Below, piece by piece: positions 22,034-51,220 of a stretch of DNA of 64,000 bases. Position 1 is the stretch's first letter. Each line of letters begins with the position of its first letter. Origin of the DNA: an uncultured Elusimicrobia bacterium (GTDB taxonomy: Bacteria > Elusimicrobiota > Elusimicrobia > 2-02-FULL-39-32); the NCBI GenBank assembly GCA_964523525.1, contig CAZFYO010000002.1, positions 133,038-197,037 of the forward strand. The letters run 5' to 3'. Position numbers and translations under genes: made by a program. The notes under the pieces were generated by a model. That model was not told the origin of the DNA and did no database searches. It was given only the letters and a program-made list of their open reading frames with translations.

Positions 22034-22058
22034 GCGGGTCTCCTCGCCTGGTTGTGAT

Positions 22059-23291: not shown

Positions 23292-23297
23292 GCTTTC

Positions 23298-24206: not shown

Positions 24207-24225
24207 TGAAGATCCCCCGGCAAAC

Positions 24226-25134: not shown

Positions 25135-25150
25135 TAAATTGCTTCCTTGA

Positions 25151-26032
25151 CTAGCGTCCGACCATTTTGATTTCGGGCTCAAGGTCCACGCCGCATTTCT
25201 CTTTGACGGTCTTTTGCGCGTGCGCCACCAGGGCCTGAAAATCCTTCGCGGTGGCGCCGCCCGTGTTGACGAAAAAATTGGCGTGCTTGGGCGAAACCTG
25301 CGCCGCGCCGATTTTGAACCCTTTGAGCCCCGCCTGCTCGATCAGCTTCGCGGAAAAATTTCCCTCGGGATTTTTGAAAATGGAGCCGACGTTTTGCGTG
25401 CCGATGGGCTGGGTCTCGAGCCGTCTCGACAAAAATTCCTGGATGATTTTGAGCGTGGATTCTTTTTTGGCGGGAACAAGCTTCAGCGTGGCGAAGCACA
25501 GGATTTTTCCGCCCAGAGACGACCATCGGTACTTAAAATCAATCGCGTTGGCCGGTATGATTTTCATATTTTCCTGCTCATCCAGCACTTCGACGGATTG
25601 CGTGATGGTCCCCAGCCACAATTCGCGCGTGCCGCAGTTCATGATGAGCCCGCCGCCGACGGTTCCCGGGACGCCCACCAGAGGCTCCGCTCCTCCCAAC
25701 CCTTTTTCGGCGCAGGCTTTCACCAAAGTCGGCAAAAATACTCCCGCGCCGGCGCGCACCGTGTCTCCAGAAAACGTGAAGGTTTCGAATTCCCCCCGCA
25801 AGCGGATGACCAGCCCAGCGATGCCGGCATCGCTCACCAAAAGGTTCGAGCCGGCCCCCAGGATGAAAACAGGAATCTGTTTGGATTTTGAGAACGAAAT
25901 GAGGGATTTTAGATGGGAAACGGAGGCCGCTTCGGCGTACCACTCGGCGGGACCGCCGATGCCGAGCGTGGTGTGTTTGGACATTGGCTCGTTCGTCGAG
26001 ATCCGAGCACCTGATTCAAGCAACTGCTCCAT
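25151..26032 (-). CDS. murB: UDP-N-acetylenolpyruvoylglucosamine reductase
   Basis: 293 aa with an FAD-binding N-terminus (…HTTLGIGGPAEWY…FILGAGSNLLVSD) and a MurB C-terminal domain (…KNPEGNFSAKLIEQAGLKGFKIGAAQVS…). Confidence 0.85.
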   Translation of the reverse strand: MEQLLESGARISTNEPMSKHTTLGIGGPAEWYAEAASVSHLKSLISFSKSKQIPVFILGAGSNLLVSDAGIAGLVIRLRGEFETFTFSGDTVRAGAGVFLPTLVKACAEKGLGGAEPLVGVPGTVGGGLIMNCGTRELWLGTITQSVEVLDEQENMKIIPANAIDFKYRWSSLGGKILCFATLKLVPAKKESTLKIIQEFLSRRLETQPIGTQNVGSIFKNPEGNFSAKLIEQAGLKGFKIGAAQVSPKHANFFVNTGGATAKDFQALVAHAQKTVKEKCGVDLEPEIKMVGR

Positions 26033-29000: not shown

Positions 29001-32000
29001 AGCCCGGAGAAAAAATGATAGATGTCTGCCGGATCGTTAGGAACCACCTGATGAAATAATGAAAGGCCCTTGGGCTCTGCTTTGATTTCGCGGCGCTGCG
29101 AGACCAGACGGAACGGGCTCCGCTCACCGTACGTCCCATTGAAAAAATCCGTCAGTTTATCCCAGGCCTTGTAATAGTAATCGAGCTGGAACCAGCCAAA
29201 CCCATCTGACCGGCGGCGCCACTCCCCTTCAAAATCATCTCCAAAAACCTCGGGCCGCTTGAGCTTGCTATCGGCCCAAGACCGAAATATTTCGTGAATT
29301 TCCTGACGCCCTTTAATCACGCTAAAAATGTCGGGATCTACGTTCCATATATTCAAATCCCGCTCTTCAATCAGGATGGGCATTTCGCCGAGGTATATCC
29401 TGCGGTGGTCCGCATCCAACGTGACGACCTGTCCGTTCCATTTTTTCAGGACATCAATGGCTTCGGCAGCGCCCACGATGCAGGGGATTCCTATGGCCTG
29501 GGCATTTTGCGCTGCGTGGGACGTAACCCCGCCATCCGTGGTCACCACCGCGGCCAGTTTTGCAAACACGGCATTCCACTCGTTGTTGGTATGGTGCGTC
29601 ACAAGAATCGCCCCCGGCGTTGCATCGCGATGCTGGTCCGTTGACTCTATGATTTGCAAGCGGCCGACCACTGCCCCCGTGTTTGCGATTCGGGATGACG
29701 CTCCCAATGTAACCTGGGGAGCCGACCGGGCGGTTTCCGATTTATCATCTACAACCGATACGGAAATCGTAAACTGGCCGCCGCTTTTATTTGCAGCTTT
29801 CACTGCCTTAGGTCGGGCCTGAAGGATATAAAGTTCACCATTCTCGCCAAAACAAAATTCGATATCGAGTTGCTCCGCCCAGTCCTTGTTCAGATAGTGT
29901 CTTTGAAGGTTCCCCGATAGGAGGCTCAACCTCAAAACCTCCACGTCACTCAAACTGGGGTCATCTCCAATTATGGACTCTTCGCGAACCCCGCCGCCCC
30001 TGCCCGCCGCAATGCGCGCCCGCTTAGGCACGATCGACTTGTCGAAAATAACGTCGCCCATATATCCCGTTATCCACCGATCACTGCCATAGCTGTTCTG
30101 CTGAACGACGCCTTCCCCAAGGCCGGGCTGGGCTTCAATGACGTGGAGAGGCCACTGCGTTTCATCATGCACCGTGAATAGCACTCCTGCGGCCTTGGGA
30201 TCCACGAATTGCTGGAGAACGACCGCCATTCGCGCCTCTTTTTCCGAAAAGCCGAGTGTTTTGCGGTGAGTGACGAACTCCTTCGAATAAAGACTGGCCC
30301 AGACTTTCTTGATATCGGAAAACAGTTCTTCTTCTGTGATGATGTGCAGGAAGGATTGCGCGAGCCCCGCGGCGGAGGAGCCCTCGATATCTTCAACGTT
30401 GGCGGAACTACGCGCCGCGACATCGCGGCCCAGTTTTCGAAAAACGTCGCTCAGCCCCTTTCGGAGCCCGACAGGCATTTCCATACGGGTGATACGTGTC
30501 CTGAGTGCCGAGGCCGTTTCCTCAATGCCGTTCTCGGACGATTCGGATTCCAGTTTTTCCACCAACCTTGAGACTTCCGGATCCGCGAGAACATAGCGTT
30601 CAAACGCGGCAGTGGTCAGCACTTCGGTCTCCGGAACCTTGAAATGAAGCCCATCTCGATTCCTGTAAACTTTGGAGATATCCCGGAGACGGTGCAGATT
30701 TAACCCCTTGCCCCCCACGAGGTGCAATCTGCCGGACATGGGATGCGCGGCCGGCAAAATGTCTGTGACCTGTGACCATATATCATCGTTTCCAAAATAG
30801 GGAGCAACCAGGTCCTGGGCGAAGTCCCGGGGCCCACGCAGGAAGCGGGCGCGGACCTTGTCCCAGTTTTCGAAGCGCATCAAATCGGAATCTGCGCCGT
30901 CATAATCCGGAGCCTGGCCCGAGACACCCAGGTTATCAATCGCGCGTTTCCGGGCTCCTTGCTTGCGGGTAATGATGCGGGATATTTCATTTTCTTCCGC
31001 AGCATTCAAGACATACACCATGAGCGTGGACTCGTCGTTCGAATCCATTGGAAATACGTAAGGAATTCCCGTCCGAGCCCGAACCTCCTCAGCTGCCGAC
31101 TGAACCGGGGACCGGGTGCGTTGAGGATTGACCGAATAGAGGCTCAGGCACCGCGTAAAAGAATTGTAGTCAGCGAAGATTTTTTCGCCGCGGAATCGGG
31201 AGGAGAAATCTCTCAAAATTTCGCGAAGCATTTCTTCTTCCAATTCACTGAAGGCAAAGAAATCATAGCTGATCATCCCGGTCCGAAAAGAACCGGCGCT
31301 ACCCACCGTTTCCAGCCTGCGGAGATCAGGCGTAATGCCCACTTCTTCCTGAACCGCGCGAGCAGCGGCGGCTTCCAGGGTCTCGCCATCTTTCGGTTTT
31401 CCATTGGCGGACACTGTCCACTTGTAGGGAAACGACCGCTTGAAGGCGCCGCGTTGCTGCAAAAGCACTTTACGACGGCTGGAATCCATGACCAGAATCT
31501 GGACCGAACGGCCACTGGTGCCTTGAGTCCAGCTTCCGCCACTCAGCGCTTTGGCGAAGAGCCGGGAAACGTAGCGCAGAGATAAGAGCTTATCCCGCAT
31601 ATCCAGCGCCGAACCAAACGCCAGGTTTCTCTCCATCTGGCTCTGAATTTCCTGGCCGGCTGTTCTGGATCCGGCGAAGTCCCCTTCGCCAAAACGTTCT
31701 CGCATTTTCTTCGCGCGCTCTACCTGCCCTTCCTGCACCGCACGGCGAACATCATCCCTGAGTTTATTTTCGGGCACGGAATACAGGAACTCCGCTGCAG
31801 TGCGATCAACTACCGGAAAGGATCCTCCAGCGGAGCGCATGATTCGCCTGTCCTGCCAACTTGCGGTAAAATAATCCGAACCCTGCGGCACATAGGCAAA
31901 GACGACTCCTCCTTTAGGCACACCGCTGACCGCCATAGAAAAATTTCCATAGGCTTCAAACAGATGAAATGCGGGCTTCTGGACATTGCGCAGCATTTCA

Positions 32001-35000
32001 AACTGAAGCGCTCCCACCGAAAACAGGTAATCCGCACCATTCACTGCAGCAAAAGCTTCTCCGGAAAGGCGGCTCATGTCGGTACCCTCATGCGGCGGAC
32101 CGTTCCCAATTAGATTAAAGCGCCCCTTCTCCTGCAGTCCCCTCAGCGGCTCAAAAATCGGGTCTTCCAGTATTTCAAGGGTACTCAAATAACTGAGATC
32201 AGTCCGGTAATTCGCCCTTTTGGGAATGAAGTTGATGCTCAAATTGGGACTCTCCAGCAGCATCTCCATCGCAAGTTTTAGAACGAGGACCGATTCGCCG
32301 TTGTCATCCGGCAGCCAGGCAACCGTAACGGGGGTTTTTGCATTCAGGACGGAGTTTTCGAAATGCGAATATGCGTCAATTGCGGGGACAGTGCTATCGA
32401 AGGACGCGAGCTTTTCCATGTTTGCCACGGCGATGGCATCCGCGGTACCAGACTCGCGCCCGTCATACATTTCGTATTTTAGGATTTCAAAAACACGCGC
32501 TGAACGCAGGAGGAGTTGGCGGACGGATAATCCCGGCTCGAATCGACGCAGCATAGCCAATGCGGTCGCATTGGAAAGATCGTTGCGCTCGCGGTAGGGA
32601 TCGAAATCGGGGTCCTGGATTTTTCCAGTCGCAATGATCTCTATGATTTGCATCGTGAGCAGGCCTCGTTGCCAAGTCGTAAGGCCGGACTCCAGGGAGG
32701 AACCGTCATCCATGGGAATTTTCCAGGCCAGTTCCAGGAGTTCCAGCCCGCGGGCCGTTAAGGTTGAAAGCGCTCGATCCTTGTCCTTCCGGCGCATCAG
32801 ACCGTTGGAAATTTTCTGATCCAGCCAAAGCGAAAGATCCCTTTCGATGAGCTTGCGTCCGACGATCCTATCTTCGCTCTCTTTTTCCATCCCGGCAACG
32901 TCGCCGGCAAGGTATGCGCTTGAAACATAACCACGGCCTACAATTTGCTCGAGGTCATGATTAGCCGCGGAAGGTGGTGACCGCGGCAGAAGGGTTTCCA
33001 GAATACGCCGGCGCTTGGCGGAGATGTCACGATATTGAATGGATTCTTTCCAGCCGAGATCTTTTTTAAGGATGTCATAAAGTTCGTGAATGGCGCTTTC
33101 AGATGACTGAAACTCGTTTACCGACGGTCTCACCTGATCCGAGATTGTGCCAGAGGATCTGAACTGACTGACAAAAACAAACGCATCAAATGCAATGTGG
33201 GCTGCGATTGCGGGCAGGGGATGAACGGCATACATCAGAAAAAGTGCGGACGAGCCCCATTGCAGGCGGCTCCAGGGAGAACCGCGCACCCGTCGCGGCG
33301 CGAGCGCGATAAAATATGGAACGTGCATGGCAGCGTACAGAGAGATCACGGCGAGGAATACCGGAGGCTCCAGCCAGCCCGGAAGGAGCCAGGCGCCCAA
33401 TATGATTTCTGCAAACGTTCCCGCCGCCCCTATCGCGGCAAGATGCGCGCGATTTCTCACTCCTGCCACTTGAGCAGCCAAATACGCCATTGAATTCGCG
33501 GCCGCGACTCTCGAACTGAAAATGGCCATCCGGGCGTCGACAAAAAGTGACAGAATTCGGCTGACCCCGGTAAATCCGGCACCTGCCTCATCCACGTTCA
33601 TTTGGCCCGTATCGGGGTCCTTTGAAACTGAATACTTCATGGATCCGTTGGGGCCCGAGACGGAAACCCGGACCCGTCCGGGCCCGGCATCTTGCAGCCG
33701 GGCCGTGAAGCCATTGGCCGCTTCGCCCAGCGCCATGGACATACCGGCATCCACCTCCCGGGCGTCGAGATGAGTATCTGCCCCGTTCGCGATTTCTTCA
33801 AGGGCGAGCCGATCAATCGCAGCGGATCGTTGCGCTTCTAAAGTCCATGGCTCGATTGAGACGAAAAGTTTTTCACCGCTAAAAAGCTTTTCGATGGGGG
33901 TTTTCTCCCGGGCGAAAATGGAAAGATATTGCGCGCCGCCGAAGGTTTCAATCTTTTCGACTTTCGGTGAAAGCGTCAGCACCGCTACGCCGGATGCAGA
34001 GATATCTTTTTCGATAGCGGACGAATGAAAGCCTCCCGCGACCAGCACCGCAACGTTGCTCCCGCGCTCCTTCATCTCCCGCAGGAGCTTGAAAGACATG
34101 GCGCGATCGCGAAGAGTCGCCTCTCTGAAAAACTCCTCAAACATCGCGAGCTCCGGATCTTTGCCTGCCAGAGATTGATACGCTCTCCACTCCCCGGGTG
34201 AGAGGGAATAGTCCAGAAGCCGGCCAGTTAGTCCCGCTGCGCGGGACTGCTCCAGTAGCCTTTTCTCATCCTCGGACCGGACCAGAACCCTGTATGCGGA
34301 GGCCTCCAACGCCCCCAGTTGATCAAAAAATTTATCTGAGCGGATCCCGTCCGACAGTGCGGCGTATCGGACGTACCGGACCAACTCCGGAAATTCAGAA
34401 AACCGGACGCCGTGCTTTTTCCCTATGCTCTCCAGCCGGCCGTAAAATTCCGAATGGTCAAGCTTGCCACATCGGTAAGCAATCGCAGCGTTTGCAAGAT
34501 TCTCGGATTCCCTCCGACCGATCGAGCGCGCCAGCTGCCCAAGAAAATCGCCGCGCTGTTTTTCCACCGCTCTGAAATCTATAGAAGATTCCATGTTCAG
34601 GACAACCAAAAATTTCCGCACTTCGTCGGAGTCCTCCGCCAGAGGTGTGACTGCAGCCAGGGCCCGGACGTACTGGCCCAGCGGGATCTTTTCGCCGCGA
34701 TGAGACTGCACCACCCTGTCGAACGCGAGGAGCCGGGGATTGAACGTCTCGAGTTTCCGGCGCTCCAGTTGCAGCTGAACTCGCTTCAGCTGCCGAAGTC
34801 GCGCGGGCGCGGCCGCGAAAGAACCGAGATAGGCGCTCACGTTCGCCGCGTAGCGCTGGCGGTCGTCCACGCCGGTAAAAATAGGAGCCCTGCGCGCGGT
34901 CAGGCCGGCATGCACGGGGCCGGTAATTTTATTTTTCTTCAGAAGGAAATCAGCGACTGTAACTGTCGATTCCAGCTTACCGGATGATCTGAATTTTTCC

Positions 35001-35461
35001 AGATCCAACGGACCAAAGGCGCCCTCGAGCGCAACGAAGTCGACACCGCCCTCATTGATCAGCTGGTGAACAGATGCTGATATATTTTTTTGAGCATCCT
35101 CATTCAGGTGAATGTCCTGAATATGGATCACGACAGGCTGTCCGGCTTTCCAACCGGGAGGAACCAGAGCCCTGCGAAGGTTTGAGAATTCAAGCGGCAG
35201 CCGCGGCAAATCTCCGGCAATTCCTGACAGGTCCTCGCGCGCATTCAAATCGGCAGAACGCAACGGGCGTAGGCCCGGCATAGCCACTGAAGGAGCGGAC
35301 GGGGCGGCCGCTTCTATCCAATGATTCACGGATCTAGCCTGATTGGCCAGGAGCAATGGGGCGGTTACAAAGTTTTGCAGGAGGCACGCGGCCAGAAAGA
35401 CCGCGAAAAGTTTGCGGCAGGGGTTCTGTCGGTGGGAAGTTCCGGCTAAGCGGAGACCCAT
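26081..35461 (-). CDS. giant multidomain membrane protein 1 (3126 aa). It has a signal anchor, a paralogous N-terminal domain, a TM cluster, a possible DUF89-like domain, a NUDIX domain and a PEP-utilising dikinase-like module
   Basis: Uninterrupted 9.38-kb ORF. The ATG at 35461 overlaps the stop of giant gene 2 by 16 nt. Domains were assigned from motifs read in the translation (see the separate entries). Confidence 0.85.
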   Translation of the reverse strand: MGLRLAGTSHRQNPCRKLFAVFLAACLLQNFVTAPLLLANQARSVNHWIEAAAPSAPSVAMPGLRPLRSADLNAREDLSGIAGDLPRLPLEFSNLRRALVPPGWKAGQPVVIHIQDIHLNEDAQKNISASVHQLINEGGVDFVALEGAFGPLDLEKFRSSGKLESTVTVADFLLKKNKITGPVHAGLTARRAPIFTGVDDRQRYAANVSAYLGSFAAAPARLRQLKRVQLQLERRKLETFNPRLLAFDRVVQSHRGEKIPLGQYVRALAAVTPLAEDSDEVRKFLVVLNMESSIDFRAVEKQRGDFLGQLARSIGRRESENLANAAIAYRCGKLDHSEFYGRLESIGKKHGVRFSEFPELVRYVRYAALSDGIRSDKFFDQLGALEASAYRVLVRSEDEKRLLEQSRAAGLTGRLLDYSLSPGEWRAYQSLAGKDPELAMFEEFFREATLRDRAMSFKLLREMKERGSNVAVLVAGGFHSSAIEKDISASGVAVLTLSPKVEKIETFGGAQYLSIFAREKTPIEKLFSGEKLFVSIEPWTLEAQRSAAIDRLALEEIANGADTHLDAREVDAGMSMALGEAANGFTARLQDAGPGRVRVSVSGPNGSMKYSVSKDPDTGQMNVDEAGAGFTGVSRILSLFVDARMAIFSSRVAAANSMAYLAAQVAGVRNRAHLAAIGAAGTFAEIILGAWLLPGWLEPPVFLAVISLYAAMHVPYFIALAPRRVRGSPWSRLQWGSSALFLMYAVHPLPAIAAHIAFDAFVFVSQFRSSGTISDQVRPSVNEFQSSESAIHELYDILKKDLGWKESIQYRDISAKRRRILETLLPRSPPSAANHDLEQIVGRGYVSSAYLAGDVAGMEKESEDRIVGRKLIERDLSLWLDQKISNGLMRRKDKDRALSTLTARGLELLELAWKIPMDDGSSLESGLTTWQRGLLTMQIIEIIATGKIQDPDFDPYRERNDLSNATALAMLRRFEPGLSVRQLLLRSARVFEILKYEMYDGRESGTADAIAVANMEKLASFDSTVPAIDAYSHFENSVLNAKTPVTVAWLPDDNGESVLVLKLAMEMLLESPNLSINFIPKRANYRTDLSYLSTLEILEDPIFEPLRGLQEKGRFNLIGNGPPHEGTDMSRLSGEAFAAVNGADYLFSVGALQFEMLRNVQKPAFHLFEAYGNFSMAVSGVPKGGVVFAYVPQGSDYFTASWQDRRIMRSAGGSFPVVDRTAAEFLYSVPENKLRDDVRRAVQEGQVERAKKMRERFGEGDFAGSRTAGQEIQSQMERNLAFGSALDMRDKLLSLRYVSRLFAKALSGGSWTQGTSGRSVQILVMDSSRRKVLLQQRGAFKRSFPYKWTVSANGKPKDGETLEAAAARAVQEEVGITPDLRRLETVGSAGSFRTGMISYDFFAFSELEEEMLREILRDFSSRFRGEKIFADYNSFTRCLSLYSVNPQRTRSPVQSAAEEVRARTGIPYVFPMDSNDESTLMVYVLNAAEENEISRIITRKQGARKRAIDNLGVSGQAPDYDGADSDLMRFENWDKVRARFLRGPRDFAQDLVAPYFGNDDIWSQVTDILPAAHPMSGRLHLVGGKGLNLHRLRDISKVYRNRDGLHFKVPETEVLTTAAFERYVLADPEVSRLVEKLESESSENGIEETASALRTRITRMEMPVGLRKGLSDVFRKLGRDVAARSSANVEDIEGSSAAGLAQSFLHIITEEELFSDIKKVWASLYSKEFVTHRKTLGFSEKEARMAVVLQQFVDPKAAGVLFTVHDETQWPLHVIEAQPGLGEGVVQQNSYGSDRWITGYMGDVIFDKSIVPKRARIAAGRGGGVREESIIGDDPSLSDVEVLRLSLLSGNLQRHYLNKDWAEQLDIEFCFGENGELYILQARPKAVKAANKSGGQFTISVSVVDDKSETARSAPQVTLGASSRIANTGAVVGRLQIIESTDQHRDATPGAILVTHHTNNEWNAVFAKLAAVVTTDGGVTSHAAQNAQAIGIPCIVGAAEAIDVLKKWNGQVVTLDADHRRIYLGEMPILIEERDLNIWNVDPDIFSVIKGRQEIHEIFRSWADSKLKRPEVFGDDFEGEWRRRSDGFGWFQLDYYYKAWDKLTDFFNGTYGERSPFRLVSQRREIKAEPKGLSLFHQVVPNDPADIYHFFSGLEGLSLEDYLDLYEARWRGFQQFAMFTESIETLDSSNVDAMVDALIDAFVWMHIGFWLDVIVDENLVRPRLVYLHKELHPYLRDVAVSDILPSGSINPFRSDIKPGWVLELSRAKDKEIYALLERIRRTPSAVAAFELNNDNRVDAAAAIAQRLEMGAPEILNAVRGWSDKYKETREHIELLDDTPRYLMDLHGRLKSGATIGIPLLARLFSGWEDYDAEKIRGQDPVLYDLIASRARLLAFESKYPDFETGNTEAMGNIKVLAMNSISPAEIEARIPDVLEQLLAQSEETGRYEQNARHIFEKLPELKVILALSRMEIVLREDGHHLIVPFQRKIARMMLNQGRLAVAKGILEKPEDIFKIGTDELIAVVREDRPLYIRDTLARWENLAAADIRMQERWSSDPRAAAGEFDAAVRAAISVLRRQASQTSIDRVRDAYLSEADRLRNRSDRLMERAAESGSPYDLVHVRRAGRAFGFVAGSAGLLFTLESALLLAGQVSGLSVPDFLRPSFVIFSFTTASLFALQSIAFGRERRWVEKAKISFSVSSEPVTSAEKLFAIERLRHILAGYHLLEGGLWDSVEVRVNSYLGHRGKAEARVINENGRQTLEISEWLVRLISSDPESPDLASLRTQVLETIFDRHEFIRLKMNRSLSFAQFLTDRGFQTLYIYAIHRPVTNLIRWVRSLISVIPERWSASPEEIVARLLVSGDEPHIGAILGPVEKSGVEDLGGVLHHAALPGVSKVLDQDVLVREIAKQIRIKRGMGQSKYSAKTPAIDQVLRDAVDAILNGVEFSDIGGRLSTVLSESKRPFIGVVIPPSADAEEFAMNVLSRLERPEELSRDAPAVGFFAPGLSQDQKDRIAQYARELGIVRVLFMGSENLFDPLHEVSGWNVNWNALDALTEGVRREGFGTHVFIVHRGLMGNLSGYSVLPQISLLKQGMILVINDLFQAMPLIDGNDIDNIWRDAELIAKQA
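29380..30715 (-). other. PEP-utilising-enzyme module inside giant protein 1: ATP-grasp nucleotide-binding domain plus phosphohistidine swivel domain, with no PEP/pyruvate TIM-barrel domain
   Basis: The VGGKGLNL glycine loop sits at 30700-30717. The …DIEFCFGENGELYILQARP motif ends the ATP-grasp part. The swivel domain reads GAILVTHHTNNEW…VVTTDGGVTSHAAQNAQAIGIPCIVG, with the catalytic His codon at 29516-29518. Confidence 0.75.
31130..31530 (-). other. NUDIX hydrolase domain inside giant protein 1 (non-canonical box with RA in place of RE)
   Basis: The Nudix box is GKPKDGETLEAAAARAVQEEVGI at about 31332-31401, matching Gx5Ex7R[E→A]UxEExGU, and is preceded by a VLLQQRGAFKRSFPYKWTVSANG strand. 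Confidence 0.55.
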
Positions 35462-41400: not shown

Positions 41401-42882
41401 CCATTGCCCCTCGGTCCCAATGGGATGCGTGCGTCCCGCATCTTGTTCCAAAGCATCAAACGCGGCGCGAAACTCATGCCAGCCCATCGCATGCTGTTCG
41501 TCCCTATAGCCCGCCCAATCCGCAGGCGACATCTCAAGCAGCCAGAGTTTTTCCTGAGTTTTCAGCCACCGCTCCAGTTCGAGAACCCGCCCAGCCAAAG
41601 CGCCCTCACCGCTCAAATCCCGCTGCGCCGCAAGCGTCAGAATCTTCAGGCTATCCTGAAGATTCTCAAGCGTGATGCCGTCTGCCTTCTTCAGGTATTC
41701 CACGTAGCGCGACGTATGAGGCAAATCAACAGAGTGGGTTCTTCCAAAATGGATAAATGCTCCATAATATTCGAGAGGACCCACCGAGCCCAGCCTGAAT
41801 TGGATACTGATAGCGGCGAGCCGCGAAAGGGCGTCTGAGCTGGCGCGGGTCTGCAGCTCCTTTATAAAAAAATTGCGCTCCTCCTCCATTTTTTCTTTGA
41901 TGAAAGATGATTCCATCATGCGAAGATCATCCACCGCTTTCAGCGTTGGCCCTGCCGCTGCGTTCCATACCCCGGGAGCAGCGGACTTCAAATAAGACAG
42001 ATAAGAATTGAGGGACAATTCGTTCTTTTCAAACCGTTTCAACTGTTTGTCCAAGGCCAATAGTTCGTGCGGATAGGCGCGGGACTTCAACCCGTCGATT
42101 TCTGAAAGAAGAGAACGGATGTTTAATCCCCCGGGCTGGCCGGCGGGATGCGCGGGACCGCTGGCGCCGACGATACGGTTTTGAACCGTGAAAATATTTT
42201 TTTGCAATGCGACGTTTTCACGGTACAGAGCCTCGTTTTCAACTCCCTCCACGTCTATGAATCCGGCCCCTTCGAGGATACTGAGATATTCCTCGCCGCT
42301 GATTTTCGCGCGCGCCAGAAGGTCCTCGGCCAGAGATTTCCGTATATTCTTATCGGGAAAAGCGTGCAGCCATTCCAGATCCACGCTCTTCCAGGCGCCT
42401 TCCACACCCACGACAAGCGGAGCCGCTGGCGAACCCGCGCGATCGGACTGGCGCTTCAGATATTGGAGGATAACCGCAAGATTGCGCTGCGCATGCAGAT
42501 AACCATGAGCGTCCTGAACATGGATAACCATCGGAGTTTTATCGGAGGCAGAAGGCCAGTATGTGTCGATAACTTGACCGGCGCCTGGAGGAATTTGCAG
42601 GCCCACCCCTTCCGCAAAGAGGCCGGGGACGGGTTGGGTCAGAAGATTCGCGTCTGTGGATGAACCCGACTTCGAGTCCATGCCGCTGATCGTTTCTAAT
42701 GCCTTGCGGCGTTCAGACCAGAGTGATGCCTGCGCCAGCGGTGGAGCCGCAGACGAAAAGACCAGGGAAAAACAGACGATGAATGTCGCCCCCCTGGACG
42801 CAAATGACAAATGATGTTTTCTGTTGTTTCCCATACGAATCAGCGGATATGCCGTCAGGCGCATGCCGCCCGATATCGGCAC
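35446..42882 (-). CDS. giant multidomain membrane protein 2 (2478 aa). It has a signal anchor, a paralogous N-terminal domain, an embedded GT5 glycogen/starch-synthase domain and a C-terminal polytopic TM cluster
   Basis: Uninterrupted 7.4-kb ORF. Candidate starts are GTG 42882, ATG 42864 and ATG 42834. Only 29 nt separate it from the stop of giant gene 3. Confidence 0.85.
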   Translation of the reverse strand: MPISGGMRLTAYPLIRMGNNRKHHLSFASRGATFIVCFSLVFSSAAPPLAQASLWSERRKALETISGMDSKSGSSTDANLLTQPVPGLFAEGVGLQIPPGAGQVIDTYWPSASDKTPMVIHVQDAHGYLHAQRNLAVILQYLKRQSDRAGSPAAPLVVGVEGAWKSVDLEWLHAFPDKNIRKSLAEDLLARAKISGEEYLSILEGAGFIDVEGVENEALYRENVALQKNIFTVQNRIVGASGPAHPAGQPGGLNIRSLLSEIDGLKSRAYPHELLALDKQLKRFEKNELSLNSYLSYLKSAAPGVWNAAAGPTLKAVDDLRMMESSFIKEKMEEERNFFIKELQTRASSDALSRLAAISIQFRLGSVGPLEYYGAFIHFGRTHSVDLPHTSRYVEYLKKADGITLENLQDSLKILTLAAQRDLSGEGALAGRVLELERWLKTQEKLWLLEMSPADWAGYRDEQHAMGWHEFRAAFDALEQDAGRTHPIGTEGQWKKLIALTQSHSEYVQKYFERAHQRDVVLAENAVKLAKNQKAGRVVLVAGGFHTSGIVAELRRSQIPYCVIRPSLSNTQGLSETRGPVAAVRRFDPKNTESLLSTYAHNLRNLPATISSAAPLPKDILHFLRSRAVFFGPFKTGDASSLLGSFQGDQARVNFVMKFAEGTPGPDSVVSAGWGETVKAAMGTLRQMAAMMDQASAPELLLQLAATIRTGGNTGRLQELTVGEKRFEDYVRSLDMSRFSPGQRAELLDFLHSAGYRASANGPRVELYPAAMADEGSLLGARSQIQEPRAIAPLPSAPRATQGALHVGTLEQLVQLLIMRYSLTLVPWSRFFRSMNMIDDADGSLKERLAAAGSIGFVREFESLFPDQLRQFFENLISDWLQQSVPSELSTEEMTVLESIRRLFESNSERMANLGILHVDVRVHEGRELIEGPDNFLLAPFVVKDSGQAIFSINKIILDSLLKEEDATRLRLIQTLVERELLLREFLMRPGADYDDAHDALIDSKRVPGAEAIRQKELLDWAHAAVFPKQAERPFESAHQRVERLKNGQGRIVHVAYEMGGFFKVGGVGDFIKELPMAMREAGHNVSIVLPGHHDALERRAKDTGKIVSVKTARGFVRFRILQAESDGVTVYLLANGKYFRQGYHPDRREAFMEAALFSRAAVEAIRVLNLDPDVVNSHDWVTGLVSPFLKMTAKPGEQIPATVFTIHNIGHDYQGKFPSGWFEELEAMGLPASVNNMEGIEYYGDISLIKGGLYYADKLVTVSPSYRNEILSGDFETGLDGLLRARDGDFAGIVNGIDIVSWDPQSDPVLNEDGYSPFDADEKFNQKARNKMTLQARYSSPSNDPASKRYGYLEEDASKPLLAVVTRLTYQKGMETILNHVQEAVDSGAQLVILGTANADEKKYEQAFQRLAIRYPGSVVFINRFDPIVARRIFAASDIFLIPSLFEPGGIAQQQAMRYGAIPIARAVGGLVDTIIDPAQSLVESTGFKFGSASMDPQAQERAYVRALTQALALYREQSQGFSGMQRRAMSAPKSWNELVPQYVKIYENAVDPSLVPALRESDYAAPVSPAAVIPDFEHVPTLPFGAEYSADEKAAADVLRFIGAMPEDLTAWEEQIFALLSQPTVGAQHLLLNLYRKYLIAQSEQPAALLPVLERVIGRLMDRSIQRILTYGDPYEVEAARRTLYFLAYMETYDDHIYYGTGWTIPTLRQNRDEFDRREGRRTDFKKITSPAVESRLQNIHAKLMGKLQAIETAGDLVGADPRGLDLLRSMTPVLESKRSLDQYVFHQSKGDFNSIKEHGLSVRHTQGGERPDRIFFWDSRFYLGTIQNSPYEGSTRWNIPYLWLRVKKDAPTILENRVRGGELYDFAGDFKGTEIPPEYLELVDPGKPWIGYPITEFENADQFFEKIGTPNPFKSAKGGGMIFKPGQRFGFMQYREIAWLAETLLIALPAWLAMLLGVDAAGHSFGIAAASTLLSSHIIRVVQERRSGSSVFDVSGWNWKVLISRDVLVVSALSGLAAGLVPVLGMQNSAVPFAILAVVHQRINASANIKDSGEMKSAPAVTGAATFLSVRAHSIFKPLVLFASLSAAAMGFAGVAGAPDIWHGLSVGGQNQLAQQLLGELASGLAVAPEKLALDVVSSFAGAGRLLEVLPVVGALFSKFEEVHSVGTGRGTIAFTAGAAAVGGLLSRDALTRYFSKVQWMGALQNARFAALLPRQAVVLISGPGSWTAAVGLALSGFASKATVRNIQGDSTALSPRQMPMPKIEGRILSAVTESHLNETRILLVDSGAPQRSPSGISAAIPALADHYLALLQDRDDPESRGRMFMAFDVSQISLSEVEAEQLKGQISKGTGLPEDFVILYHTPADAMAQAGRIAAQYHSKANLVIQVLTQNAAKWDIEGVAMILDVGKTINLRGPQAARMLRSILEQLNLSDSERGAISYDDATGNLRINAAETLNPATLENSWKANRIIWVSA
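38217..39735 (-). other. GT5 glycogen/starch synthase (GlgA-like) catalytic domain inside giant protein 2
   Basis: The N-terminal signature is VAYEMGGFFKVGGVGDFIKELP at 39661-39720 (KxGGL-type). The C-terminal Rossmann half reads …VTRLTYQKG…ILGTANADEKKYEQ…FLIPSLFEPGGIAQQQAMRYGAIPIARAVGGLVDTI. Confidence 0.8.
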
Positions 42883-42911
42883 GCGCCCTTAGGCCCCCAA
42901 ACTCTCAATAT

Positions 42912-45900
42912 TTATGCCTGACGCAGTATGACGCTGTTCGCCTTGATGTCTTCAAGGAGCGCATCGCTCGCTTTGATTTTGAAGACGGCGCTCAGGGAAT
43001 ACCACAGGACGAACATGATCTGATCCAGGTCCATTCCTGTCAGGTCAATCATGCTCGGATCGTCCGTCATCACCCTTTGGCCTTGATTCAAAATCAGCGG
43101 CCGCCCGCTGATTTGCATGACCTCGAGGAAACCCTTGACGTACAGTCTCCCATAATTCAGATCCATCACCTGCTTACCCCCGACCACCTGTTTCAGAACC
43201 TTATCATTGGTGTGAATCACCCGCACCCTCCCTTCATTCAGGGCGAGCAACAGGTTGTCCAGCCCGGGGCTCAGAACTCCCAGATTTCGCTGGTCGGAGA
43301 TCTTCTGTCTCAGGACCTGTTTGAGCTCGGCTAACGCGCCAGCCGAATTCCCCTTAATATCAACGATCATCTGTCCGGTCCGCTTCAGCGATCCATCGCC
43401 GATTTCAAGGCCGACTGATTCCAGGTACCCCTCGCTGTAAATGCGCCGGCCGCGAGCGATAATAATGCGATTGGCGAAGTCGGAATCTTTGCCCAACGCA
43501 TGGGGTAAAAGCTTTCCAGCCATCGCAGCGACTGCCATGAATGCGCGAGGCCAATCTTTACCGATCTTTACGCCGGAGACTGACGCCTCCCTTTCATGGC
43601 TCGCAATCAATATTTCGGCAACGCGCCGCGATGCGTCCGGATTGCCGGACCCGAACGTTCCTGCCGTCATCGCGAAAGAAACGGAATCCGCGAAAAAGCC
43701 GGTCTCGGAACGATCCTGGCGCAAGCGTTCACGGCGCTCGGAGATGATGGACTGCAGGGCCCTGACTGCCACGGCGGCCCGCTCCGCATCCTGCGGGCTT
43801 ACGAGCGCAACGTTGCCCTGGGTCACGACCCGGATCGCTATTTGAATGTCTTTGTCCGTAACGACGCTTTGGGTCTCACCCTCCAGGCCGACGCTCATCC
43901 CGCTCACCAACGATAGCAATCCGTAATTCATGATATGGCGGCTCAACGGCTCCGCGGTGGAGCGATCCATTCCGGACGAGATCAAATCGTCCAGGATCCC
44001 CGTAACGGACGGGAGATCCGTCAATTCCGGCTGGACGGGAGATCGGCCTGTGACAAAATTCCGGAGGCGGCCGAGCCCTTGATAAAGCGCGTCACGGAAA
44101 CCGACCGCGCCCACGAAGCCACCAACCAAATACCCCTGCTCAGTCCCGAGTGACGCGGAGACATCAGTTCCGGAACCTCCGAAACCCAAATATTGCATTA
44201 TGAGCGCGGTAATAGCTACAAACGGGAGAGCCAATACAACGATAGGCAGGATATCCCCCAGGCGGGATAGGACTCCGGGGCGAGTCCCGTCATTTTCATC
44301 CTGATTCCAACTCAGCGATGACTCGTCAACCTCAACCGCCGCGTGAATATCCCAAAACTTGAGCGACTGGCCCATGTAGTAGACAAAATAGGGAACAGTC
44401 CACCAGTGCGCATTTTTCCGAACGCGGGTGGACGAGGTGTCCATCATTTGCCGCACGTTCACGATATTAGAGATGCCCGATCTGTCTCTTAATGCCTGTA
44501 GTTCCCCGGGCTTAAATTCCTCGCCGGCCCGCTCAATGAATATGACGCCCATTGACTCTCCATCGTACCCGTCCAATTTTGACTCCATTTTGTCCTTGAG
44601 CTTTTTGGTTGTATCGGGCTGGATATTTCCGTTTTTAGTGACCTCCCAATAGCGATGATCCGACCCTACCATATAGGACCACTCCACGTTCACACCCCGG
44701 TTAAAGCTCATCAATCTGAAAATGCTCGTCTCTCCATCGGCATCCCGAAGATCGTCCTCCTCTTTGGCGATGGGCGAGTACTCAATGAAGGGCTCAAACG
44801 CCTTCAGCAGCTCGAGCGTGACCGCCTCTCGGATCGACAGGGTGCTCAAACCCGGTTTTCTTGTCGGGTCGCTGTTATCGATCATCACGACCACTTTATC
44901 GAGCTTATGCTCAGCAATCGACATGAGAGCAATGTGCCCCATCTGCCAGGGATCACCCTTCATTGGATAAAAGCCGATGCGGCCGGGTCGTCCGCCCTGA
45001 GTTTTGATCGATGCCCCGGTCTCGTCACCACGGCTCAACTTGATCTTTACAGCGTTCGGATCGGTCTCGCCACTTTTCACGTTGGCCTCGATTTTGTCGA
45101 CCGCCGCCAGCAGAGGCCCATAAATCTCATTTTCTATTTCTCTGACTATGCGGTCGTATTCCCAAATATTACTTTCCGCGTCAGGCACGGGATTCGCGGC
45201 GACATACTTTTCGGCGTACGCCAATGCCCATTCGCGCGAACGGAGCAGGTTTTCCCGCACACGCGCCACAGCTGCCAGTGCGTCGTCCGGTTCCTCCGGC
45301 CTGCGCGTCATCACGTTTGCGCGCCTCATCCCTTCCCGAGCCAGCTCAGCTCCCCGCTGGAAGAGCATGTTTCTGATTTCGAGCAGACCGGCGCGTACCG
45401 CGCTGACAGAACCGCTGTCAAAATATCGGCGCATCAGGCTCCTGTCCACCGCGTTCATTTGGGGACCGTACATGTCGGGAGACAAATTCCGCAAGTCCCG
45501 AGAAAGAGATTGGACCACATCGGTATCAGCCAGATTCTCAGAGGAAATCCTGTCCGCCAGGTCGTTCACGAAAGGATCTACGGCTGCGACGCGTTTGGCT
45601 GCGCCAATATCCCAAAACTGGATATTTTGGGCCATAAAATATATGGGAGCCGGCACCGTCCACCAATGCCTCTGCTTGCGAACGCGGGTCGCGGAGGTAA
45701 TATTCACGCCCTTGGGCTTAATGTTGTATATTTCTGATATTCCTGAGCGATTCCTCAGCTCCTGAAGAGTCAGCTCAATTTTTCCTCCCGCTTCAGCCCT
45801 TTCCCGGTCCTCATGAGTAAGGCTTTGCTTAAATTCATCACCGGTCCTTTCGAGGAAGATGATCCCCATGGGCTCACCTTCTCGGCCCTCCCGGCCATAG

Positions 45901-48900
45901 CCATCCAATCCATCAGCCATTTTTTGAGTAATCTTTTTCACAGTGTCCGGCATTCGCACGCCATTTCTAACGACTTCCCAGAATCGGTGGTCGCCGCCCA
46001 CAAAATAAAACCAAAGAACGTTCAGTCCGCGGTTAAACTGGATGAGCCGGAAAATGCTCGTTTCGCCGTCAGCGGTCCAGAGGTCTTCTTCTTCTTTTGC
46101 GATTGGAGTGTACTCGACAAATGGGGACGCGATTTTCATCAGCTCGATGGTCAGCGCTTCGCGCACGGATAAGGAGCTCAAGTCCGGCTTTCTCACAGGG
46201 TCGCTGTTATCGATCATGACCAGAATCTTGTCCAGCCCCTGCTCTGCCATCGCCCTCAAGGGCTGCGCCAGGTGCCCAATCTGCCAGGGATCTCCCTTCA
46301 TCGGCAGGAATCCGACTTTGGCCTGCCGCCCATCAGATTTTTCGATCGAAGGGGTGTTTTGATCGTTGCGGCTCAGCTTCAAGTGAACGGAATTGGGCTC
46401 GGTCACACCGTCAACGATATTCTTTTCAATTTGATCAATGACACCATTCGGCTCTAACAGCATGTCATAGATGCTCGCTATTTCAACATCGATCTCAACG
46501 TCGAACTCCTTTACAAAATCCTCAGAGGCACCAGAATCTTCCTTGTATGCTCTTGCGTAGGCCTCGGCCCATTTGCGAAGAACAATGACGTTTTCCCTAA
46601 ATTTTCTGATAGCTTCAAGGGCTGAATCGTCTTCGGATGGATAATTCAGCACCAAGCCCGACCGCCGCATACCGTCAAGTGCGAGATCAGCTCCCCGCTG
46701 GAAAAGCATGTTTCGTATTTGCAAAAGCCCCGCTTTGACCTCGGCCGTCGTCCCATTGGCGACGTAGCGGGACATTACGCTTTTATCGATCGCATTCATA
46801 TGCGCGCCGTACACTTTGGGAGTTAACGCGCGGGCTTCGGCAATGACTTTTTCCATAACAGCAGGATCGCTCAGGTTAGAGTCTTCGATTCGTTTGGCAA
46901 GATTCCCAGATGCTAAATCAATGTTGGCCTCAACCGAGCTGCCAATGGAATCAGAATCCTCCGGCAATTCCTCGTTGATCCTGGCGTCGCCGACAGTCTT
47001 GACGTGCGCATTCTTGGCGCCGCCGATCTCGGCAAAGATGATGTCCCGCCCCCACTGATACACCTGCTGGTTGATGCGGGCGCTTCCGGGGGTTTCTTCG
47101 ACTGTTTCCACGTAAATTCTGAACAGGGGTTCGGTGCCTGAAGCGCGGACGTTTACCCATCCGACGAGTTTGCCGGACGCGTCCGCGAGGCGGTAATAAT
47201 AACCGTCCATCGTTTCGGTCTTGATGACTCTCAACCCCGTGTTGCCGAGAACGGGTTGCTCTCCGCGCTCGATGGCCGCCTGAAATTCCTTTTGAGCCGC
47301 TTCGAATTTTTGCATCACCAAGCCCCGCGATCCTTGAACGCCCGCTTTGACGGCATCGACTTCGACGTCATAGCGCCCGTAATCGGGCCTGCGCGCCGCT
47401 TCATCGGCTTCCTGAAATAGGCCTTCCATGGAATTACCGGCCTGTTTCGCGCGGGCGGCGACGGTCAGGGCATAAAGCGTGCTGGCGAGTCCGTCCTTAT
47501 ATGGTAGCGCGCTTCCGAGGGCGATTCCCCCGTTTTCCTCAAAGGACAGGATGACGGTCTTGCCTTCTTCCTTGGCCCGGCGGATCTCGTTGTTTAGAAA
47601 CCGGAAACCGACCGCGGTCAGGCGGATGTTATCCTGCGGCACGCCGAAACTCGCGGCGATCGAATCCACCCAGGAGGTGGAAACGATGGAACGAACGACC
47701 ACGTATTTGGCGGGATCGAAATCGTCGCCCAGTCTTTCTTTTTCCGATTTCAAAAATCCGTAAACCTGAACGCTGGCGAGATCGTTGCCGCTGTAGAGGC
47801 GGACCGAGCCGTCCGCCTTCGGCGCCATGAGCCCCGAGCGGTCGAAATCTCCGTCGCCTGTAACCCCGGCGTCGCGCTTTTCCGAGCGAATCTGCTGCAT
47901 GGTTTTTTCCATGTTGGCCGCGGTGATTTCGCTGTTATTGCGCCCGCCAAACTCGGGATCCGCCTGGCCGTTGATGATCGTCACGTTCTGCCCGATGCCC
48001 AGGCGGTCGATGATTTCCTGCGCGACTCCGCCCACCACGCCATTCTGACCGTCGAATAGCGCGTTGATGCCGGAAGCGCGAATATCGTCCGGATTGACGC
48101 CGATGACGTTGATCAAATAGTCCACGTATTTTTCGATCGAGGGTTCTATAACTTCAACGAGTGGATGATTATCAAGGTCAAAATCCGAGCGGAGCATTTT
48201 GACGCGGCGGATTCCTTTTAGATGATCGACGATGGGGTTACTGACCGGGCTGTCGGCAAGACCACCTGTTCGGCCGTCAAAAAACTCAACGCCGCCGTCC
48301 GCCGCTGGATTGTGGCTGGCCGTAAAATTGACCATCATGGCGGACTTGGCGCCTTCATGCGGCCACATTTCGTAAAGGTTGAGAGGGGTGGACGCCGCGC
48401 GGCTCAGCAATTTCACCTTGATGCCGTTGGCGGCGAAAATGCGGGCCGCCATTTCCGCGTAGGCCTTTTCCGAAAGATCTTCGCCGGTTGCAGGGTGATT
48501 TCCCTGATGGCGGTGGTCGTAGCCGATCACGATCGTGGGTCTGCCGCGCCAGTCCGTTAGACCCGCTTCTCGGAAAGAAGAGCGGTTCTGGTTCATGTAG
48601 TCCGCAGCGCTCTGCATCAGGACGCGAATACGATCGGGAGAGAAAGTTCCGTTCGGATTTTTTTCGGATGGGAACCGCGCGCGCCAGCCGGCAGTGCCGA
48701 AGCGGATTTCGTCACGCTGTGCCCGTGTAATCTTGACAGGAACGCTTTCGATGCTGCCGTCGCCGGTCACCCCGGCCGCCATGGGCAAGCCCATCGCGCC
48801 GAAGACGGAAAGGTCATTATTGCCGGTCAGGAAGAAAATGACGGCGCCCAAAGTCGCGGAGATGAATGCCATGATGAAAAGCGGTTGTAAAGGAGGAAGA

Positions 48901-51203: not shown

Positions 51204-51216
51204 GGTATTCTCCCTC
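51204..51216 (-). promoter_or_regulatory. Shine-Dalgarno sequence (GAGGGAG) for giant gene 3, in the 17-nt spacer after the gene 4 stop
   Basis: The minus-strand sequence is GAGGGAGAATACC followed by the ATG at 51203, which implies translational coupling. Confidence 0.6.
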
Positions 51217-51220
51217 GATA

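Follow-up and report, generated by a model that had tools for sequence, protein, structure and literature searches.

What four giant genes lying end to end beside the cell-division genes of an uncultured Elusimicrobia bacterium encode, and whether the enzymes embedded in them work together, are the questions raised by a 64,000-nucleotide stretch of its DNA (assembly GCA_964523525.1, contig CAZFYO010000002.1, positions 133,038 to 197,037 of the forward strand; this whole stretch is called here the window). According to the list of open reading frames (ORFs), the minus strand carries four very long ORFs arranged head to tail, with tiny or overlapping spacing. An earlier note on this DNA had recognized several enzyme domains in them and had proposed a membrane-tethered pathway leading from hexose phosphate to alpha-glucan. 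The genes are named here Giants A to D, which correspond to Giants 4, 3, 2, and 1 of the earlier note, respectively:

51221-63886 as listed, and to 64000 as an open frame, minus strand: Giant A, 4,221 amino acids (aa) as listed
42912-51257, minus strand: Giant B, open ORF of 2,781 aa, or 2,763 aa from the ATG at 51203
35446-42882, minus strand: Giant C, ORF of 2,478 aa, protein of about 2,470 aa
26081-35461, minus strand: Giant D, 3,126 aa

The region is an array of four paralogous giants of 7,634 aa (partly beyond the window), 2,763 aa, about 2,470 aa, and 3,126 aa. Judged from their sequences, these are tandem giant membrane proteins headed by a TIKI-type domain and carrying embedded enzymes whose catalytic motifs are kept, except for a QxGH motif in the nucleotidyltransferase (NTase)-like units of Giant B and an alanine in the Nudix box of Giant D. 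Pfam and NCBIfam comparisons and motif inspection located every domain that had been named where it had been placed on the minus strand, mostly with strong statistics, PF01467 being weak. The pathway read into these domains was sustained only in part: the phosphoglucomutase (PGM)-type domain and the GT5 glycogen synthase appeared intact and sugar and alpha-glucan enzymes recur in related giants, but the activation step is missing and the domain set is not repeated elsewhere. The enzymes of the four giants thus do not appear to form a complete sugar-to-glucan pathway. In the sample of relatives described below, the recognizable cargo theme that recurs most is nevertheless that of sugar and glucan enzymes. 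The embedded enzyme domains are the following:

47067-48704, minus strand: Giant B, alpha-D-phosphohexomutase domains I-IV (PGM/PMM/GlmM superfamily), aa 852-1397; PF02878, PF02879, PF02880, PF00408
45588-46901, minus strand: Giant B, NTase repeat unit 1, aa 1452-1890, a helical region plus a HIGH-superfamily-like domain with GDPWQIGH...SATRVRK
44328-45560, minus strand: Giant B, NTase repeat unit 2, aa 1899-2310, with GDPWQMGH...SSTRVRK
38224-39732, minus strand: Giant C, GT5 glycogen/starch synthase of the ADP-glucose type, aa 1051-1553; TIGR02095, PF08323, PF00534
31286-31513, minus strand: Giant D, NUDIX-fold domain, aa 1317-1392; PF00293 with E 2e-12 and 47.7 bits against a gathering score of 21.1
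29405-30721, minus strand: Giant D, ATP-grasp domain similar to those of phosphoenolpyruvate (PEP) synthase and pyruvate phosphate dikinase (PPDK), plus a swivelling phospho-histidine domain, aa 1581-1892 and 1949-2019

Giant C consists of a signal-like N-terminus, a TIKI-like head (about aa 95-575), the GlgA domain, three to four transmembrane segments (TM), and a C-terminal region ending in ..IIWVSA. Its proposed identity as a GT5 glycogen synthase was borne out by TIGR02095 (glgA), which scored 411.6 bits against a cut-off of 328.45 over profile positions 2-476 of 477, by PF08323 (E 5e-57) together with PF00534, and by E. coli GlgA (2qzs, E 4.5e-63). The motifs KVGGV, TRLTYQKG, and FEPGG of Giant C aligned with KTGGL, RLTSQKG, and FEPCG of the E. 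coli enzyme (2qzs/3d1j sequences), and the lysine of KxGGL, the R/K pair of RLTxQKG, and the glutamate of FEPxG were all kept. The two examples of possible degeneracy given in the earlier note concerned this lysine and the active-site serine of the mutase; the lysine and the phosphoserine loop of the mutase in Giant B were both preserved. In P0001 (2,411 aa), the form under which Giant C is deposited, the annotated start lies 67 codons downstream of that of the ORF; since this start skips the family-conserved signal peptide and the ASLWSERRK motif (window 42682-42882), it is probably too late.

Giant B, which is the same protein as P0020 (2,763 aa), shows the order signal-like N-terminus, TIKI-like head, TM, PGM, two NTase units, TM, and a C-terminal region ending in ..VILRQA. 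The complete phosphoglucomutase-type domain with four motifs that had been described in it was recovered in full: PGM_PMM domains I to IV matched with E values from 3e-13 to 2e-5 (Pfam), and the phosphoserine loop TASHNP, the metal loop DGDFDR, the sugar loop EENGG, and the phosphate loop RASGTEP were all kept and aligned to those of the solved phosphomannomutase PDB 1tuo. It therefore has the four domains and all four loops by which the alpha-D-phosphohexomutase superfamily is recognized. None of the NCBIfam equivalog cut-offs (pgm TIGR01132, PRK07564, GlmM, PMM/PGM) was reached, the best model being archaeal GlmM (105.6 bits against 439), and the glucose-specific pgm model gave 39.8 bits against a cut-off of 778. 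These results pointed to a phosphohexomutase whose sugar specificity is not assignable from NCBIfam scores.

The two units that follow the mutase had been regarded as HIGH-type nucleotidyltransferases that could activate a sugar-1-phosphate. They represent an internal tandem duplication of approximately 440 aa each, with 50% protein identity over 441 aa and DNA likeness in only two short segments (69% and 81% identity). Both have QxGH, with glutamine replacing the first histidine of HxGH, and both keep the S[AS]TRVR motif. Matches to hidden Markov models were weak (NadD NF005410 on unit 1, E 4e-4, 19.7 bits against a cut-off of 214; PF01467 on unit 2, E 0.13, 12.9 bits, below the cut-off of 21). 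P0027 and P0093 contain the same module, the former with QxGH and the latter with the canonical HxGH, and SxTxVR was kept in all copies; because P0093 has the canonical motif in the same module, the assignment of the Giant B units to the HIGH superfamily may stand as a putative call from sequence. The number of units and, provisionally, their superfamily were retained from the earlier description, with the reservations of a subthreshold PF01467 and an altered motif, and the proposed role as sugar-1-phosphate activators was not supported. In hhalign comparisons, the units aligned in register better with NadD (E 0.012 over 97 columns) and CoaD (E 0.004) than with the sugar- or glycerol-phosphate enzymes HldE (E 0.1) and TagD (E 0.16), although the reference sequences were approximate and the HHalign probabilities low, so that these alignments are leads only. 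An AF2 model of a unit built from a two-sequence alignment was unusable (mean predicted local distance difference test, pLDDT, of 35), and sequence and profile searches of PDB with the unit gave no match. Whole-protein and piecewise Pfam/NCBIfam scans of the four giants did not reveal any NTP_transferase of the GlgC, GalU, or RmlA type.

Giant D, which is the same protein as P0021, is composed of a signal-like N-terminus, a TIKI-like head (about aa 100-540), two or three TM (674-760), the NUDIX domain, and the dikinase module, followed by approximately 600 aa without assigned domain, two TM, and a C-terminal region ending in ..LIAKQA. The NUDIX domain had been cited for a family that includes NDP-sugar pyrophosphatases. 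The domain itself was confirmed by PF00293, but its box (G-KPKDG-E-TLEAAAA-R-A-V-Q-E-E-V-G-I) departs from the canonical GX5EX7REUXEEXGU in having alanine in place of the glutamate after the arginine, and the nearest NCBIfam model was isopentenyl-diphosphate isomerase (IDI; NF002995, E 9e-9), with no demonstrable link to NDP-glucose. The same holds for the ATP-grasp plus phosphohistidine module: PF01326 (PPDK_N; E 4e-51, 174.7 bits) and PF00391 (E 7e-18, 64.5 bits) matched and the catalytic histidine motif GGVTSH was kept, but no match to PEP-utilizers_C, the PEP/pyruvate-binding acceptor domain, was obtained after the histidine domain with Pfam/NCBIfam, and a connection to NDP-glucose could not be demonstrated either. 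NF005057 covered only profile positions 18-473 of 798, with 234.7 bits, below its cut-off of 598. The best PDB sequence matches were 5fbs, 5hv1, and 8a8e, deposited as phosphoenolpyruvate synthase; we take 5fbs and 5hv1 to be Listeria rifampin phosphotransferase. In glucan water dikinase the histidine domain precedes the nucleotide-binding domain; the domain order of Giant D is that of PEP synthase, and a glucan-water-dikinase reading was set aside. Both modules, NUDIX and dikinase, belong to the general repertoire of such giant proteins. As a separate observation, aa 944-1163 of Giant D (31973-32632) gave a weak match to ARMT1/DUF89 (E 8e-4, 19.1 bits against a cut-off of 25).

Giant A is incomplete at the right edge of the window, its frame being open up to nucleotide 64000. 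The part inside the window matches residues 3414-7634 of P0151 with 100% identity. P0151, a protein of 7,634 aa, carries the head module, hereafter N-module, at aa 12-537, so that Giant A as seen in the window is the C-terminal part of an N-module protein. The huge polytopic membrane domains reported in it, which had been credited with the export or anchoring of a polymer, corresponded to two polytopic hydrophobic blocks in hydropathy plots (about aa 590-790 and 1870-2520, window numbering). No Pfam domain was detected in Giant A by whole-protein and piecewise scans, nor in the rest of P0151 beyond the N-module, and its polytopic block gave no sequence match to solved structures, transporters and synthases included, and belongs to no Pfam family; the membrane character was thus upheld on what is an incomplete ORF, the tail of a gene for 7,634 aa, and the transport function was not. 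Outside the window, residues ~1560-2500 of P0151 contain at least eight degenerate repeats of approximately 90-100 aa with the pattern ..RGxxSFFLxxDDPNTPxxPxxGxGxEGLGW.. In three genomes, a PGM-bearing giant is preceded by a dark polytopic giant that is Giant A or a homologue of it: in the window (42912-64000), in L001 (1-9302), and in L081-083 (L081, 1-23407), the contigs of L001 and L081 ending there.

The feature that unites the four genes is their head. Giants B, C, and D have in common about 600 N-terminal residues with 24-25% identity, the heads of Giants A and C are 36% identical, and identities across the array range from 24 to 36%. Closer relatives occur in other genomes (50% for B and P0027, 42% for D and P0059), and for this reason the array is regarded as one of old paralogues and not as a recent duplication. 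The head comprises approximately 550 aa and has the fold of the TIKI/TraB/ChaN/erythromycin-esterase superfamily, split by a helical insert of approximately 300 aa; in the AlphaFold model, the pLDDT of the core was 80-90. Thirteen divergent members share the invariant residues D162-x-H164, E193, R566, and G591-G592-x-H594 (B numbering). The N-module thus shows the parallel beta-sheet of the TIKI fold and catalytic residues of the 2His/2Glu type, the pattern [D/E]-x-H...E...H being intact with aspartate for the first glutamate; the pattern and its spacing follow the catalytic residues of RRSP, E3900-x-H3902/E3930/H4030 (PMC6254334). None of the Pfam families of TIKI type tested on the N-module (PF04187, PF01963) matched above cut-off, PF04187 being weak in 5 of the 13 members (best E 0.002). 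The head of Giant B and the termini of the giants are located as follows:

49398-50870, minus strand: N-module of Giant B, about aa 130-620, TIKI/TraB/ChaN-fold head
51050-51203, minus strand: signal-like N-terminus of Giant B
42720-42864, minus strand: signal-like N-terminus of Giant C
35340-35461, minus strand: signal-like N-terminus of Giant D
51221-51265, minus strand: C-terminal tail of Giant A
42912-42956, minus strand: C-terminal tail of Giant B
35446-35490, minus strand: C-terminal tail of Giant C
26081-26125, minus strand: C-terminal tail of Giant D

The segment before the head resembles a signal peptide and ends in P-[LV]-A-[EQ]-A | [SN]-[LF]-W-x-[ED]-R-[RK]. The strong conservation of [SN]-[LF]-W-x-[ED]-R-[RK] just past the putative AxA site is unusual for a cleaved signal peptide. 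At the other end, the giants finish in ..MILKQA (A), ..VILRQA (B), ..IIWVSA (C), and ..LIAKQA (D), and in 104 of 136 family members with 1,500 aa or more an amphipathic helix leads into an Ala-ending tail of the form hydrophobic-[L/A]-x-[Q/S/A]-A, which resembles C-terminal recognition tails of the ssrA/Tsp type. A TM follows the head in 125 of the 136 (median position aa 771). By hydropathy, one clear TM lies between head and enzymes in Giant B and two or three in Giant D, and Giant C has no hydrophobic segment from the signal peptide to residue 1939 (maximum Kyte-Doolittle value 1.0). By simple parity of these segments, GlgA would face one side of the membrane and PGM the other whichever way the head is oriented, a weak argument because the same crude method gives from 0 to 6 segments in relatives.

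To delimit the family, an exhaustive HMMER search of 1.84 billion representatives was carried out with the N-module (clusters at 50% identity). It returned 10,341 clusters at E<=1e-3 and 7,136 at E<=1e-30, and the module was N-terminal in all 150 of the 150 matches listed, in host proteins of up to 7,634 aa. The four window genes are members of this single, very large family, for which Pfam offers no model. More than 411 N-module loci were detected in GTDB species representatives with a profile from five closer sequences; the best 80 of these were nearly all in Elusimicrobiota metagenome-assembled genomes (MAGs), often with many paralogues per MAG, and their N-modules head ORFs of 1,500 to more than 4,000 aa, some of them in tandem. 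Some family members are labelled Omnitrophota and Auribacterota. The sampled members show a common outline of signal-like start, head, usually a TM around aa 750-800, a variable middle, further TM, and a conserved C-terminal tail.

The variable middle of relatives holds diverse cargo, including Lon/AAA, PIG-L, and a Ser/Thr kinase with a PTS-EI domain. Among 20 complete Elusimicrobiota giants, glycogen phosphorylase was found in two and UDPGP in one, and further domains were PPDK_N, aminotransferase, cNMP-binding, radical SAM, kinase, methyltransferase, and HATPase_c. The cargo of the window recurs sporadically and separately: P0131 has GT5, combined with a weak UDPGP match in one protein; P0161 has PGM; P0027 and P0093 each have the NTase unit; and the dikinase was seen in P0066 and L068. 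P0027, whose head is 50% identical to that of Giant B, has the NTase unit and no PGM match, and P0161 has a PGM match and no NTase match. The combination of domains seen in the window was present in none of approximately 230 sampled relatives, so that the co-occurrence of the set in related genomes, by which the pathway was to be checked, was not observed. By-eye guesses of a GlmS-like cargo in P0003 and a phosphorylase-like one in P0008 found no backing in Pfam and were dropped.

The surroundings of the array are those of ordinary chromosomal DNA. Directly downstream of Giant D lies a division and cell wall (dcw) cluster:

20849-26032, minus strand: murB, ddl, a gene at the ftsQ position, ftsA, and ftsZ (Pfam matches)

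The stop of Giant D is separated from the start of murB by 48 nt, so that about 48 kb of giant genes stand directly upstream of murB-ddl-ftsQ-ftsA-ftsZ on the same strand. No terminator-like site was seen at the Giant D/murB junction, the promoter/terminator scan being unenriched relative to shuffled sequences and hence uninformative. Beyond the dcw genes there are aro genes, cmk, and rpsA, and cytochrome oxidase (COX) genes at the left end (Pfam); with such neighbors, the array is located in the ordinary chromosome, within the division/cell-wall cluster. This adjacency was rejected as a family trait, murB/ddl being near only 1 of 79 related loci and there in a divergent operon. The G+C content of the giant genes (0.548-0.573) is lower than that of the flanking housekeeping genes (0.593-0.604), with a higher value in the head region of Giant B (0.605) than in the rest of B. 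Tandem DNA repeats of note were not found within the giants, and neither secretion-system nor pilus nor immunity genes were found within the 64-kb window. Two other genes of the left part were recorded: 7755-10577 (minus strand) encodes a 940-aa protein with a Peptidase_MA_2 domain and PD40 beta-propeller repeats, and 5646-7397 (plus strand) a SCO1/SenC-DUF420 fusion adjoining the cytochrome oxidase genes.

Taking these data together, we lean, by a little more than an even chance, toward a reading in which the giants would be anchored in the inner membrane of the producer itself with the hydrolase head outside, the captured enzymes would remain active and tethered at the membrane, and sugar-phosphate and alpha-glucan handling (PGM, GT5) would be one recurrent cargo theme, the array not being a closed pathway. 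The window giants may be regarded as an Elusimicrobiota small-format counterpart of the multi-enzyme giants of Omnitrophota (the "Archaeovorins" and the "sugar-metabolism module"; see below). Several points weigh against this reading. Many family members have no Pfam match at all and the cargo of most relatives is undetectable by Pfam, so that the picture of captured enzymes rests on a minority of members. The parity of membrane segments is inconsistent among relatives (0, 1, 2, 4, or 6). Since Giant C has no membrane segment between signal peptide and GlgA, an exported head would take GlgA out with it, away from ADP-glucose. Finally, a signal-like start ahead of enzymes dependent on ATP, S-adenosylmethionine (SAM), or NDP-sugars suits an exported effector equally well.

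This last possibility, that head and signal peptide export the giants as an arsenal of effectors whose hydrophobic segments enter the membrane of a partner or prey cell, where the cargo would work, in the manner of the modular MARTX toxins or of the glycogen synthase and phosphoglucomutase secreted by Chlamydia, is in our view unlikely, though it deserves serious consideration. Giants B, C, and D and the majority of relatives start with a signal-like segment that has an AxA-type site; the ATP, NDP-sugar, or SAM on which the cargo depends can be had only in the interior of a cell; there are many paralogues per genome, with cargo that is highly variable between conserved termini; and the fold of the head is common to the effectors RRSP and HopBA1. 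Secretion of GlgA and PGM is moreover documented in Chlamydia (PMC4829429, PMC9251005), and predation or effector readings have already been proposed for the Omnitrophota giants. What speaks against an effector role is that internal hydrophobic segments are normally stop-transfer anchors in the producer's own membrane, that the neighbors in the window are housekeeping genes, with no secretion-system, pilus, or immunity gene among them, and that many bacterial proteins of everyday function (such as ChaN, TraB, and EreA) also have the TIKI fold.

The closed line envisaged originally would convert Glc-6-P to Glc-1-P by the PGM of Giant B, Glc-1-P to ADP-glucose by the NTases of B without GlgC, and ADP-glucose to alpha-1,4-glucan by the GT5 enzyme of Giant C, all tethered to the membrane, with the NUDIX and dikinase modules of D proof-reading or phosphorylating and the polytopic blocks of A exporting the polymer. 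We hold it to be decidedly unlikely. In its favor, PGM and GT5 are intact, the latter being of the ADP-glucose type, and one protein fuses PGM with two units of an adenylyltransferase superfamily. One HIGH-family enzyme, the ADP-heptose synthase domain of HldE/HldC, does adenylylate a sugar-1-phosphate. The pair formed by a dark polytopic giant and a PGM giant is kept in three genomes, P0131 joins GT5 with a weak UDPGP match, and a module of PF08323 with PGM occurs in long proteins of Omnitrophota (10.64898/2026.06.07.730766). On the other side, the NTase units are nearer to NadD/CoaD than to HldE/TagD and have QxGH, the Pfam/NCBIfam scans found no GlgC/GalU-type NTP_transferase in the array, and PGM and the NTase unit occur apart in P0161 and P0027. 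By hydropathy, GlgA and PGM would be separated by the membrane. The polytopic block of A gave no match to any Pfam family or to any transporter or synthase of solved structure, and the NUDIX domain, whose box is altered, is nearest to IDI. In addition, the domain set is repeated in no sampled relative, and the same family head also carries unrelated cargo (Lon/AAA, kinases, PIG-L, aminotransferase, radical SAM, methyltransferase). We give only a slim chance to a broader proposal, according to which the TIKI-headed giants would be an unrecognized modular class of envelope proteins (more than 10,000 clusters) that take active housekeeping enzymes across the membrane or along it, and the PGM and QxGH NTases of B would feed the GlgA of C without GlgC, producing glucan at the membrane or, after the manner of Chlamydia with its secreted GlgA and PGM, in a partner cell.

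There is very little to recommend a further alternative, in which the enzyme-derived domains would now be non-catalytic modules for adhesion or for binding of glucans, sugar phosphates, and nucleotides in a surface coat. It draws on the proposal of giant ORFs of related phyla as adhesins or "coat", on the two altered motifs (QxGH and the R-A Nudix box), and on a dikinase devoid of its acceptor domain. Yet GlgA scores above a curated cut-off with the E. coli motif residues kept, the mutase has retained all four loops (those for phosphoserine, metal, sugar, and phosphate), the catalytic histidine motif of the dikinase is preserved as well, and such conservation of active sites is unexpected in pure binding modules. 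Misassembly or frame fusion of pseudogenes, which the origin of the sequence in a metagenome-type assembly might suggest, is hardly credible given uninterrupted ORFs of 2,478, 2,781, 3,126, and 4,221+ aa, identical proteins in protein collections, an orthologue at 70% amino-acid identity with the same gene order in another MAG, and thousands of family members with the same architecture.

The locus makes the phenomenon experimentally approachable, because its proteins are of small format and the family offers two handles. Known giant multi-enzyme examples exceed 30,000 aa and are beyond experimental handling, whereas giants of 2.5-3 kaa are manageable, with one or two conserved and assayable enzymes per giant (a GlgA above cut-off, a mutase with four loops, a dikinase); the handles for collecting and classifying the family are the TIKI head (10,341 clusters) and the Ala-ending tail. 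If the enzymes were active and exported, they would be metabolic enzymes deployed by bacteria outside the cytoplasm; if they faced the cytoplasm, the giants would represent a widespread means of tethering metabolism to the membrane.

When compared with known systems, the window giants showed partial likeness to several. With MARTX toxins the sole link is the TIKI fold common to one MARTX effector (RRSP) and the N-module; glycine-rich terminal repeats, a cysteine protease autoprocessing domain, and neighboring genes of a type 1 secretion system were absent according to Pfam and the neighboring genes. Within the TIKI/TraB-PrgY/ChaN/erythromycin-esterase superfamily, the N-module is set apart by its helical insert of ~300 aa, by an aspartate as first acid, by the absence of any Pfam model at cut-off, and by its position as N-terminal head of a giant in all 150 listed matches. 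Giant D resembles PEP synthase, PPDK, and rifampin phosphotransferase in having an ATP-grasp followed by a phospho-His swivel domain with TSH, in the PEP-synthase order, and differs from them in lacking the PEP/pyruvate TIM-barrel, in whose place there are ~600 aa of unassigned sequence. As in the classical glycogen pathway (Pgm, GlgC, GlgA, GlgB), intact Pgm-like and ADP-glucose-type GlgA domains are present; unlike in that pathway, GlgC and GlgB are missing from the array and the enzymes are part of giant membrane proteins instead of being soluble. Chlamydia trachomatis, which secretes GlgA and PGM (CT295) (PMC4829429, PMC9251005), offers a functional analogy only, that of glucan enzymes placed outside the own cytoplasm in another compartment: its enzymes are of normal size and use type 3 secretion without giant scaffold or TIKI head, and the evidence of homology is limited to the enzyme families.

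The closest parallels are found in long proteins of Omnitrophota, and surveys have described Elusimicrobiota as rich in huge proteins without functional assignment. The TIKI-fold head as family-defining module, the conserved C-terminal tail, and the small multi-gene format were not found in the literature searched. A 2026 preprint, which widens the Omnitrophota giants to hundreds of proteins and leaves four hypotheses standing, defines a "Module 2, sugar metabolism" in which PF08323, PF00534, and PGM_PMM I-III co-occur in long proteins with signal peptide and TM or with TM only (10.64898/2026.06.07.730766). In the window, unlike in Module 2, GT5 and PGM are in two adjacent proteins, and ROK kinase, radical SAM, and receiver domains are absent. 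The Archaeovorins (West-Roberts et al., 2023; 10.1101/2023.11.21.568195) have as type a 39,678-aa protein of Velamenicoccus archaeovorus; the same localization puzzle was noted for Archaeovorins. They are larger (more than 30 kaa) and belong to Omnitrophota, whereas the window giants are of 2.5-7.6 kaa, are encoded by four tandem paralogous genes, and have their nearest relatives in Elusimicrobiota. By Pfam, the window giants have none of the SecA-like DEAD helicase, HEAT, TPR, methyltransferase, glycoside-hydrolase, and peptidase domains of Archaeovorins; each starts with a TIKI-fold head, and the words Tiki and ChaN (as protein name) are absent from the text of that report (10.1101/2023.11.21.568195). 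The domain classes reported for Archaeovorins include GT5 glycogen synthase, which ranks second in frequency, NUDIX, which is given as consistent (an IDI-like fold being seen in one example), PGM/PMM together with several enzymes of glycolysis, and pyruvate-phosphate dikinase, which is frequent (10.1101/2023.11.21.568195). The statement of the earlier note that such fusions were without precedent can thus not be maintained. Compared by description only, both the Archaeovorins and the window giants are long membrane-associated proteins in which the otherwise cytoplasmic enzymes GT5, NUDIX, PGM/PMM, and PPDK are embedded.

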